From: Escherichia coli
GTDB lineage: Bacteria > Pseudomonadota > Gammaproteobacteria > Enterobacterales > Enterobacteriaceae
Length of the DNA stretch: 4,443 bases
Direction: 5' to 3' (one strand)
Assembly (NCBI RefSeq): GCF_003334765.1
Contig: NZ_QOWT01000067.1
Shown here: positions 1,735-4,023 of the stretch, in pieces
Layout of the letters: the number at the start of each line of letters is the position of its first letter
How positions within the stretch are numbered: position 1 is the first letter of the stretch
Notes under the pieces: generated by a model
Told to the model about the DNA's origin: nothing
Seen by the model: only the letters and a program-made list of their open reading frames with translations
Databases searched by the model: none
Made by a program: the position numbers and the translations under genes

Positions 1735-4023
1735 TCAGAAAGTCACATTCAGCGTGGCCTGACCGTTATAACCTTCAGCGCTGCTGCCGCTGACACTGTG
1801 GGCATAACCGGCCTGAACGCCCAGGGTGATATTTTCCCGGACACGGGCTTCCAGTCCGGCCTGCAGGTCCAGTGACGTGCCATTCCGGGACGGTGAGAAC
1901 GTCATGTTACTGCCGGCGGCGGCTGTACCCATGCTCATGTCACCCCGGGAGCTGAAAGTGCGGATAACAGAAGGCTGTACCCACCAGTTCACCGGCAGTT
2001 CACTCACACGGTGTTTTGTACTGTCGCGCAGAGTGTCACGGGATGAGGTGCCTTCGCCAAAGGTCATATCGTTGTGGCTGCCCAGACGGAAGCCGGCACG
2101 CACATGTTGTGTACTGCCATGCCCGAACTTCACATAACCGGCGTTATCCTGGCCGTCATCCAGGGAGAGCCCCTGCCAGGTGTACTGCAGTTGTGGCTCC
2201 AGCATCAGGTTGTCAGTGATACTGAAGGGCAGACCGGTTTCCAGTGAGCCCAGCCAGCCCCAGCCCCGGGCGCGGAAGTCGTTATTGTCCGATGACGCTT
2301 TCATGCTGTGGCGGGTTCCCTGTGCCACAATGTCAGCCCACAGGCCGGAGGACGTGTGTGTCAGATTCAGGTATCCGCCCAGGCTGCCGGCATCATCCCG
2401 GACCGTGCCGGCGCGGGAACCGTCATCATCCTTAACATCAACGGAAGAATGGCCTGCAGCACCATATACCCCTGTCGTCAGAGACATACCGGCAACCTCT
2501 GTTCTGAGCAGGTCACCCTCCAGATGGACGAAGCCATAGCTGCCGCTGCTTTCCGGCGTGGCTCCACGGGCAATACCGCCGTTGTTATCGTGACCGAGAT
2601 GACCGCCCTGAATGCTGAGACGGACGCTGTTATTTTCACCGCTTACACCGGTCTGATGGCTGCGGGAGCCTGCCAGAATCCGGTCATAGTCCATTGCCTG
2701 TGTCAGCATGGAGGCATACAGGGGGACTTCAGCACGATAAGCATTTTCACTGCGCAGGTACCAGTCTTCATCGCTGTCACGGTTCAGGGTGTAGTTAAAG
2801 GCTCCGGCCTGAAGCGGGCGACTCAGGGCAAACGCACCTTCTTCTGTGGTGGCACCATTCTGTGCATCCACAACCCGGATACCCTGTCCGGAGGTTGCCA
2901 CCCCGAGGTTACTGTTTCCGACATTTGTAAACGCAAGCCAGGTTTTGCCGGTTGCCTGACCACCATTAATCACCAGCTGGTCAGAGGTATTGCTGCCATC
3001 AAGGCGAACACGCATATTGATGGTGCCACCCTGACCGGTGAGGTTACTGGTTGTCAGTTTATGGAACGTTACCGGGGCGTTGCCTTTTGCAACAGCACGG
3101 CTCAGTACGGCATCCGGTGTTGTCTGATTGTCAAAGTAAATCTCCCCTGCGTTAACAATATCGCCGGTACTGACCACATCACCATTCAGTACCATGCTGG
3201 CGCCTTTACTGAGCTGTGTTCTGCCACTCAGACTTCCCCCGGCAGCCAGCATCAGTGTTCCACGATGTCCGACAGTGGTGTTGCTGGCCTGTCCCCCGGC
3301 ATTAACCGTAAAGCTGCCGCCATTTTCCAGCAGCAGGTCGCTGGCCTGACCGGATATGCCATCAATACTGAACTTACCGCTGGCATTGGTCCCCTCAACA
3401 GTGGCACCACTGTCTGCTATCAGGGCACCACCGGATGTCATGGTGACATCTGTTGCCTTACCACCGGCAGACACTGCCAGGGTACCGCCGTCATCCACCA
3501 GTGTTTTCTGCGCTGAATGGCCCTCCAGTACATCCAGGCGACCGCCGGACTCCAGAACAACGCCGTCAGCCTTACCGTTTTCCACTGTGAAATTGCCCAG
3601 ACGGTTGCTGCCGGTGACGGTTGCCGCCGTACTGGTGACCAGTGCGCCGCCCTGCGTCAGGGTGACATTCGTGGCTGTACCACCGGCGTTCACCTGCAGT
3701 TTGCCTTTCTGGTTAACGGTGGTGAAATCCGCCAGACCACCTTCCTTGATAATCTGCCAGCCGTCACTGTTAACAACAGTGCCAGACGCCGTACCGCCGT
3801 TGTGCACATACTGGTACCCCCCATTCAGCGTGGTATCCAGTGCGTGACCATGTACAGTCTGGTCGCCGCCGGCATAAACCACAGTGGTATTTGCCGTTCC
3901 TTCAGCAGCCACAATCTGACGACCATTTTTATTGATGGTGGTGCGTACGGCATCTCCGTAGACGGTCTGCCCGGTATTCCGTTCTGCATGATGAAGAGAT
4001 TCAGCTGCCTTTTCGCAGGCCAT
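1735..4023 (-). CDS. flu: Antigen 43 (Ag43/Flu) self-associating autotransporter adhesin, N-terminally truncated form (no signal peptide); probable non-secreted remnant or pseudogene
   Basis: 762-aa ORF. The C-terminal half carries the Ag43 translocator region as I recall it ([30 protein letters not shown], and the C-terminus [12 protein letters not shown] with terminal Phe typical of outer-membrane beta-barrels). An RGD motif is encoded at nt 1939-1947. The N-terminal half is Gly/Thr/Ala-rich beta-helix repeats ([25 protein letters not shown] and similar). [16 protein letters not shown] near the ORF N-terminus corresponds to an internal segment of full-length Flu (about 1039 aa in K-12). The N-terminus [19 protein letters not shown] has no hydrophobic signal sequence, there is no Shine-Dalgarno before the ATG, and an in-frame stop (4030-4032) lies two codons upstream. 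Confidence 0.9.

Follow-up and report, generated by a model that had tools for sequence, protein, structure and literature searches.

The stretch of DNA analysed here, hereafter the window (4,443 bp), comes from a CP4-like genomic island of E. coli, and all of its genes are carried by the minus strand. In ascending coordinates, these are a partial antirestriction gene (1-431), a DUF932 gene (522-1340), a DUF905 gene (1431-1664), a 5'-truncated autotransporter gene of the Ag43/Cah family (1735-4023) and the end part of a GTPase-family gene (4193-4443). The truncated gene, recognised by its Pfam and NCBIfam matches and called the remnant in what follows, consists of 762 codons and a stop codon (1735-1737, minus strand). 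Just downstream of this agn43 stop codon, an intrinsic terminator with a 12-bp GC-rich stem and a T run (1688-1714, minus strand) is intact. The sequence of the window is contained exactly in contig CBCSCR010000048.1 of assembly GCA_965137835.1, and the remnant ORF has been deposited as CAM3769562.1 under the name "Ag43/Cah family autotransporter adhesin", with no pseudogene flag. Four ORFs of the plus strand (2308-3516, 2180-2539, 1826-2137 and 3517-4026) were set aside as antisense artefacts, an NCBIfam match being found in none of them.

The reading frame of the remnant is open through its 762 codons and the encoded protein ends in GQATLNVTF, the codon of the terminal Phe lying at 1738-1740 (minus strand). 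A terminal aromatic residue is reportedly typical of outer-membrane beta-barrels, and the C-terminal 12-strand barrel to which it belongs is present in the form of an Autotransporter beta-domain, the translocator (PF03797, residues 477-738, 1810-2595 on the minus strand; Pfam, E = 4.1e-19). The autochaperone is present as well (AC_1, PF18883, residues 310-413, 2785-3096 on the minus strand; Pfam, E = 2.9e-18), and five AIDA-type beta-helix repeats are left in the passenger (Pfam, residues 23-269, 3217-3957 on the minus strand). A preliminary description of this DNA had stated that the C-terminal part, for which it gave the interval 1735-2700, looks intact; this is borne out by the uninterrupted frame, by the NVTF end and by the PF03797 match, which falls inside that interval. 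The RGD motif that it mentioned is encoded exactly where it was placed, by the codons CGG GGT GAC of the coding strand at 1939-1947 (minus strand), corresponding to residue 693 of the remnant and residue 879 of the intact allele. The motif lies within the membrane-barrel part, where the surrounding block hardly differs between the remnant and K-12 Flu, and it matches residue 970 of the latter. The barrel of K-12 Flu, a protein of 1,039 aa, is in fact nearly identical to that of the remnant, including the beta-domain RGD and the NVTF end, and the second RGD of K-12 Flu, at residue 208, is replaced by YGD in the allele of the window, in its intact and truncated forms alike. A protein of the remnant's composition is expected to contain 0.30 RGD by chance and one is seen; this lone RGD is not beyond chance. 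We know of no demonstrated function for the beta-domain RGD of the remnant as an integrin-binding motif.

With regard to family membership, the remnant scores 1560 bits against the NCBIfam model auto_Ag43 (NF033177), over the cut-off of 1200, while covering positions 200-948 only of the 948 positions of the profile. Passing this equivalog model is a matter of homology and descent, not of function. The solved passengers 7KO9, 7KOH and 4KH3 belong, like the remnant, to the Ag43/Cah family (NF033177), and the alignment of solved Ag43 passengers with the remnant begins at chain residue 152. The passenger of the remnant is without about its first 150 residues, and the beta-helix is incomplete, its AIDA repeats starting at residue 23 of the remnant.

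The borders of the loss were defined relative to TUM9803, the best-matching complete genome, whose island context is the same as that of the window (GTPase, agn43, DUF905, DUF932 and antirestriction genes). Its intact 948-aa allele (WP_072650319.1), annotated 'Ag43/Cah family autotransporter adhesin', has the AIDA, AC_1 and PF03797 domains in common with the remnant. Positions 1-3977 of the window correspond to positions 3001-6977 of the TUM9803 locus (L001) and positions 3976-4443 to positions 7737-8204, which defines a 761-bp deletion with its junction at window 3976/3977 and a 2-bp microhomology, AT, at both break points of the intact allele. Read along the coding strand, the deletion starts some 155-157 nt before the native ATG and ends at nucleotide 604 of the coding sequence. 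It has removed the 3' part of the leader (about two-thirds of it), the native Shine-Dalgarno sequence (AAGGA), the native ATG and residues 1-202, signal peptide included; from residue 17 to its end at residue 762, the remnant is identical to residues 203-948 of the intact allele. Unlike WP_072650319.1, the remnant is therefore devoid of an ESPR-type N-terminal signal peptide, of ~150 passenger residues, of the ribosome-binding site and of most of the leader. The preliminary description had proposed that the secretion signal was lost, which agrees with a match to auto_Ag43 that starts only at position 200 and with the composition of the new N-terminus: no hydrophobic core was found in the first 70 residues of the remnant, and the best 12-residue Kyte-Doolittle mean at the N-terminus is 0.73, versus 2.53 in the intact allele. 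The loss nevertheless exceeds the signal peptide, given that all of residues 1-202, the ribosome-binding site and part of the leader have gone with it.

The first 16 codons of the remnant ORF (3976-4023, minus strand) are 5'-UTR leader read in frame. The ATG at 4021-4023 (minus strand) has an in-frame TAG 9 nt upstream, and in the intact allele it is the start of a 41-codon upstream ORF. That it stands in frame with codon 203 onward is due to chance, at one-in-three odds. Anti-Shine-Dalgarno pairing amounts to -2.2 kcal/mol at this substitute ATG versus -6.1 at the native site, and the native translation start with its Shine-Dalgarno sequence is missing from the window. The leader of the intact allele contains a strong intrinsic terminator (L001 7640-7613), located within the deleted segment, and matches the Rfam IS102 RNA (RF00124) at L001 7600-7836 with 70.4 bits, a region that is mostly within the deleted segment. 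The K-12 counterpart of IS102 is the isrC gene, annotated ahead of flu, and expression of flu has been reported to be under antitermination control at IsrC, in an account that cites Wallecha et al. 2014 (PMC5389530). K-12 flu retains the IsrC leader and the terminator, whereas the copy of the window has lost both: an IsrC/IS102-type leader RNA with a terminator ahead of the coding sequence is absent, and an Rfam scan of the window came back empty, even at E <= 1.

Alignment to the K-12 flu upstream region points to a putative agn43 promoter at 4079-4107 (minus strand), composed of a -10 TAGAAT (4079-4084), a 17-nt spacer and a -35 TTGCGT (4102-4107). A consensus promoter scan upstream of the remnant ORF made no call, the -35 fitting 3/6 positions. 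Just downstream of this promoter lie three GATC sites (4038-4041, 4051-4054 and 4070-4073), in the same arrangement relative to the TAGAAT -10 as in K-12 flu (agn43, b2000). Alignment to the K-12 operator designates the interval 4038-4073 (minus strand) as a probable Dam/OxyR phase-variation operator, at which OxyR binding is predicted, and which would function as described in the literature on K-12 agn43 (PMC2909390, PMC2808357). A phase-variable transcript of the remnant is plausible, since the promoter and operator are kept, the leader terminator is gone and the terminator at 1688-1714 is intact; such a transcript would not by itself point to a function.

A private SNP adjoins the middle GATC, at position 4055, where the plus strand has T and other alleles have G, the coding strand thus reading ATAG in place of ATCG. 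A 60-mer containing this SNP had an exact match in 0 of 4,530 places from 3,179 genomes. Two SNPs of the window, at 211 and 4055, are shared with neither TUM9803 nor NRZ14408, and the one at 4055 lies 79 nt from the deletion junction. With the SNP at 4055, one OxyR half-site agrees with its consensus at 8/10 specified positions instead of 7/10. The commonly cited consensus for the OxyR half-site is ATAGnTnnnAnCTAT. It is given as ATAGxTxxxAxCATAT in PMC2909390. This SNP may be linked to the deletion, selected or coincidental.

The age of the deletion can be approached from the sequence that it spared. From codon 203 to the stop, the 2,242 nt that escaped the deletion match the intact alleles of TUM9803 and GF43 at 100.0% identity, and the next-closest alleles reach <=99.0% over the same stretch. 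A 761-bp lesion is accordingly found in a gene with 0/2,242 nt differing from two intact alleles, the picture of a recent and undecayed pseudogene. Synonymous and nonsynonymous differences between the remnant and its intact parent both number 0, so dN/dS against the parent is undefined, there being no substitutions to count. The preliminary description had looked to such changes, measured against full-length alleles, to decide between its readings; the comparison was carried out and, with zero differences from the parent allele, it cannot discriminate. The dN/dS values of 0.26 against BEN5202 and of 0.34 overall against K-12 (0.17 in the last 321 codons, the barrel part) reflect the pre-deletion history of a constrained gene among functional alleles. 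Short-term substitution rates in E. coli are roughly 1e-7 to 1e-6 per site per year. On the basis of these rates and of zero changes in 2.2 kb, the deletion would be a few thousand years old at most, and its true age is probably far below this bound. The remnant is then free of frameshifts because too little time has passed since the deletion.

The junction is rare by every measure that we applied. A 160-nt probe placed over it was matched in a single piece in 0/5,426 complete E. coli genomes, and the six complete genomes that cover the probe in two pieces, at 92-93% identity, have other, different lesions. A 36-nt junction string had 0 exact matches in a metagenome collection. The exact 762-aa product is found on 1 contig (GCA_965137835.1), and the exact intact parent on 7. 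Among the options put forward in the preliminary description, that of a recent truncation is thus strongly supported, by the zero divergence, by the absence of the junction from these genomes and metagenomes, and by the singleton product.

We propose that the locus is a very young pseudogene of the Ag43/Cah self-associating autotransporter adhesin, made by a single 761-bp deletion, and we assign this reading a probability of around 0.88. The ends of the deletion were probably joined at the 2-bp microhomology, through illegitimate recombination or replication slippage. The phase-variable promoter and operator would have been spared, and the ORF would now comprise 16 leader codons, brought into frame by chance, followed by what is left of the beta-helix, the autochaperone and the whole barrel. 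From what is established on type Va secretion, neither the passenger nor the barrel would be expected to attain a useful fold inside the cytoplasm. A protein without a signal peptide would not enter the Sec pathway, its barrel would never be at the BAM machinery and no surface adhesin would result. In type Va autotransporters, the signal peptide for inner-membrane crossing precedes barrel insertion and passenger secretion (PMC10058404). Since the N-terminal hydrophobic core is absent, any product of the remnant would stay cytoplasmic, and the capacity for export would be lost. The SL subdomain of the passenger mediates a Velcro-like self-association (PMC10058404), and we infer that the deleted residues fall in the N-terminal part of this subdomain. 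The barrel, the RGD and the terminal Phe would be intact for want of elapsed time, not as a consequence of selection, the remnant presumably evolving neutrally. Several points weigh against this explanation. The deletion has been seen in a single draft-assembly contig, and zero substitutions make neither neutrality nor selection on the remnant measurable. Moreover, the remnant may be transcribed, given that the promoter and operator are kept and the leader terminator is deleted, and the in-frame ATG may allow some cytoplasmic product.

Other inactivated copies of agn43, located in islands of the same type, provide a context for this proposal. In NRZ14408, the same allele is disrupted by ISEc12, with a 7-bp target duplication (ACCATGT) at the equivalent of window 3847-3853, and a BLAST search shows 100% identity to NRZ14408 over the 9,950 nt lying upstream of the gene. 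Since NRZ14408 retains the 759 nt missing from the window, the deletion and the ISEc12 insertion are two independent inactivations of one allele. They differ in the type of lesion, an IS insertion in NRZ14408 and a clean microhomology deletion in the window. An IS-mediated origin of the deletion was considered and rejected: ISEc12 of NRZ14408 sits 131 nt outside the deleted segment, the 759 nt are retained in that genome, and an IS footprint is absent from the window. The agn43 remnant of EPEC E2348/69 (1,263 nt) has lost both ends, whereas the copy of the window has lost the 5' end only, its 3' 2.2 kb being untouched. More generally, agn43 pseudogenes caused by IS elements, frameshifts or deletions occur so often that they are routinely filtered out (PMC10058404).

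It can be hypothesised that the loss of Ag43 was itself selected, owing to the costs of aggregation or to host immunity, in which case the pseudogene would be recent and adaptive, not neutral. This hypothesis would be in line with the independent hit by ISEc12 on the same allele, behind an identical flank, and with the private operator SNP so close to the junction. However, two events do not suffice for a test, pseudogenes of agn43 are common (PMC10058404), and TUM9803 and GF43 keep the allele intact. We regard a selected loss as unlikely, if still credible. In a bolder version, the two knock-outs and the half-site-improving SNP would together signify selection against the adhesin, or the loss of the terminator would have created a strongly transcribed, phase-variable cytoplasmic product affecting the cell; we consider this version distinctly doubtful.

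The proposal of a very young pseudogene also presupposes that the deletion exists in the isolate. It could be argued that the truncation arose as an artefact during the sequencing or assembly of a short-read draft and that the isolate truly has an intact 948-aa gene. The junction is found in one 28-kb contig of one draft assembly, and agn43 is a repetitive gene of which a genome usually has more than one copy, both features being troublesome for assemblers. Against this, the break points share 2 bp, whereas a repeat collapses in a de Bruijn graph only if a k-mer some tens of bases long is shared; on both sides of the junction, the sequence runs collinear with the island of TUM9803 and NRZ14408; and the private SNP, 79 nt away in otherwise identical sequence, suggests a distinct lineage. 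There is, in our view, a slim chance of such an artefact.

The preliminary description had offered two further options for the intact C-terminal part, neither of which is required if the gene is a very young pseudogene. According to the first, the remnant would be kept as a silent reservoir from which gene conversion transfers passenger or barrel sequence into other copies of agn43. The alleles of agn43 are indeed mosaic: BEN5202 differs from the allele of the window at 1 site in nt 1-1778 of the coding sequence and at 23 sites in nt 1779-2811, a split at nt 1778/1779, and domain shuffling between agn43 classes has been described (PMC10058404). The places occupied by agn43 were counted in complete genomes: there are two in each of the nearest ones, TUM9803 and GF43, and a median of 2 per genome. 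However, the remnant displays no retention over time, its junction being a singleton and its sequence having zero divergence from the intact allele; intact alleles would be equally good donors; and the older remnant of E2348/69 is decaying further. Positive evidence for a donor did not emerge and the age of the deletion makes the option unneeded, so we judge it very improbable. According to the second, which we find scarcely believable, a cytoplasmic protein made from the kept phase-variable promoter would serve a function without secretion: in favour are the promoter with its three-GATC operator, the deletion of the terminator said to limit read-through into flu (PMC5389530, in a statement citing Wallecha et al. 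2014) and an ATG in frame with the remaining 746 native codons, but an in-frame fusion arises by chance one time in three, the Shine-Dalgarno pairing is poor, a useful cytoplasmic fold is not to be expected of a beta-helix and an outer-membrane barrel (PMC10058404), and a form known as a singleton gives no indication of maintenance. What speaks for it comes down to the kept promoter and the chance in-frame fusion, and positive evidence was not obtained here either.

The finding of a very young pseudogene is real but ordinary, inactivated agn43 copies being already known. Its biological weight is small: it adds one inactivated copy of an adhesin gene that is well studied, frequently multi-copy and frequently degraded. 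Its ancestry makes the gene an Ag43/Cah allele; functionally, it falls short of what defines an autotransporter, namely a signal peptide, a complete passenger and a translation start. It does call for caution in annotation, since the ordinary product name under which it was deposited and the curated family score that it passes would lead surveys of agn43 presence or absence to score a non-exportable copy as functional. It also illustrates neatly that an intact-looking domain in a truncated gene is no evidence of selection until its divergence from intact alleles has been measured. The remnant and its intact parent both belong to a 90% cluster of 26,437 members; among the 15 members listed, ten have a length of 948 aa, and the others are shorter and mostly labelled partial.

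In the intact 948-aa allele of TUM9803, the best-matching complete genome, the leader matches the Rfam IS102 RNA (7600-7836, minus strand, of that locus), which corresponds to the isrC gene of K-12, and no such match occurs in the window. The same leader is closed, directly before the ribosome-binding site, by a strong intrinsic terminator (7613-7640, minus strand, of the TUM9803 locus) that is missing from the window. Since the 761-bp deletion takes out this terminator, more transcripts started at the phase-variable promoter could continue into the remnant than into an intact gene. 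The ATG of the remnant ORF (window 3976-4023, minus strand; from 7784 downward in the TUM9803 locus) is also the start of a 41-codon upstream ORF in the intact leader.

Just 79 nt separate the deletion junction from a private SNP at window position 4055, inside the operator and adjoining the GATC at 4051-4054. The plus strand carries T at this position and G in TUM9803, NRZ14408 and BEN5202, and a 60-mer spanning it had no exact match among 5,426 complete E. coli genomes. The substitution changes ATCG to ATAG, and the match of one OxyR half-site to the consensus rises from 7/10 to 8/10. A second SNP absent from both TUM9803 and NRZ14408 is found at window position 211, in the antirestriction gene, with C in place of T.

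The same agn43 allele is also broken in NRZ14408, where it is interrupted by ISEc12, an IS21-family element (4854-7433 of that locus), with a 7-bp target duplication, ACCATGT, equivalent to window 3847-3853. Over a 9,950-nt flank, the island carrying this copy shows 100% identity with the contig from which the window comes; the ISEc12 disruption is independent of the window's deletion. The picture of a long-decayed copy is provided by EPEC E2348/69, in which an older remnant of agn43 (2928-4190 of that locus) is down to 1,263 nt and has lost both ends; its neighbours are IS fragments and a GTPase gene with a frameshift. Among intact sequence, the BEN5202 and TUM9803 alleles are 99% identical, with 23 differing sites in CDS nucleotides 1779-2811 and one in the first 1,778 nt. 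This clustering in the 3' third is a recombination mosaic within agn43.

The truncated product (CAM3769562.1, window 1735-4023) is deposited under the normal label 'Ag43/Cah family autotransporter adhesin', and its 1560 bits exceed the 1200-bit cut-off of the NCBIfam equivalog model. An automated survey would take this copy for a functional agn43. For the minus-strand DUF905 gene, the longest ORF (1431-1700, 89 aa) overlaps the hairpin of the agn43 terminator (1688-1714), and the shorter RefSeq form of 77 aa (1431-1664) fits better.
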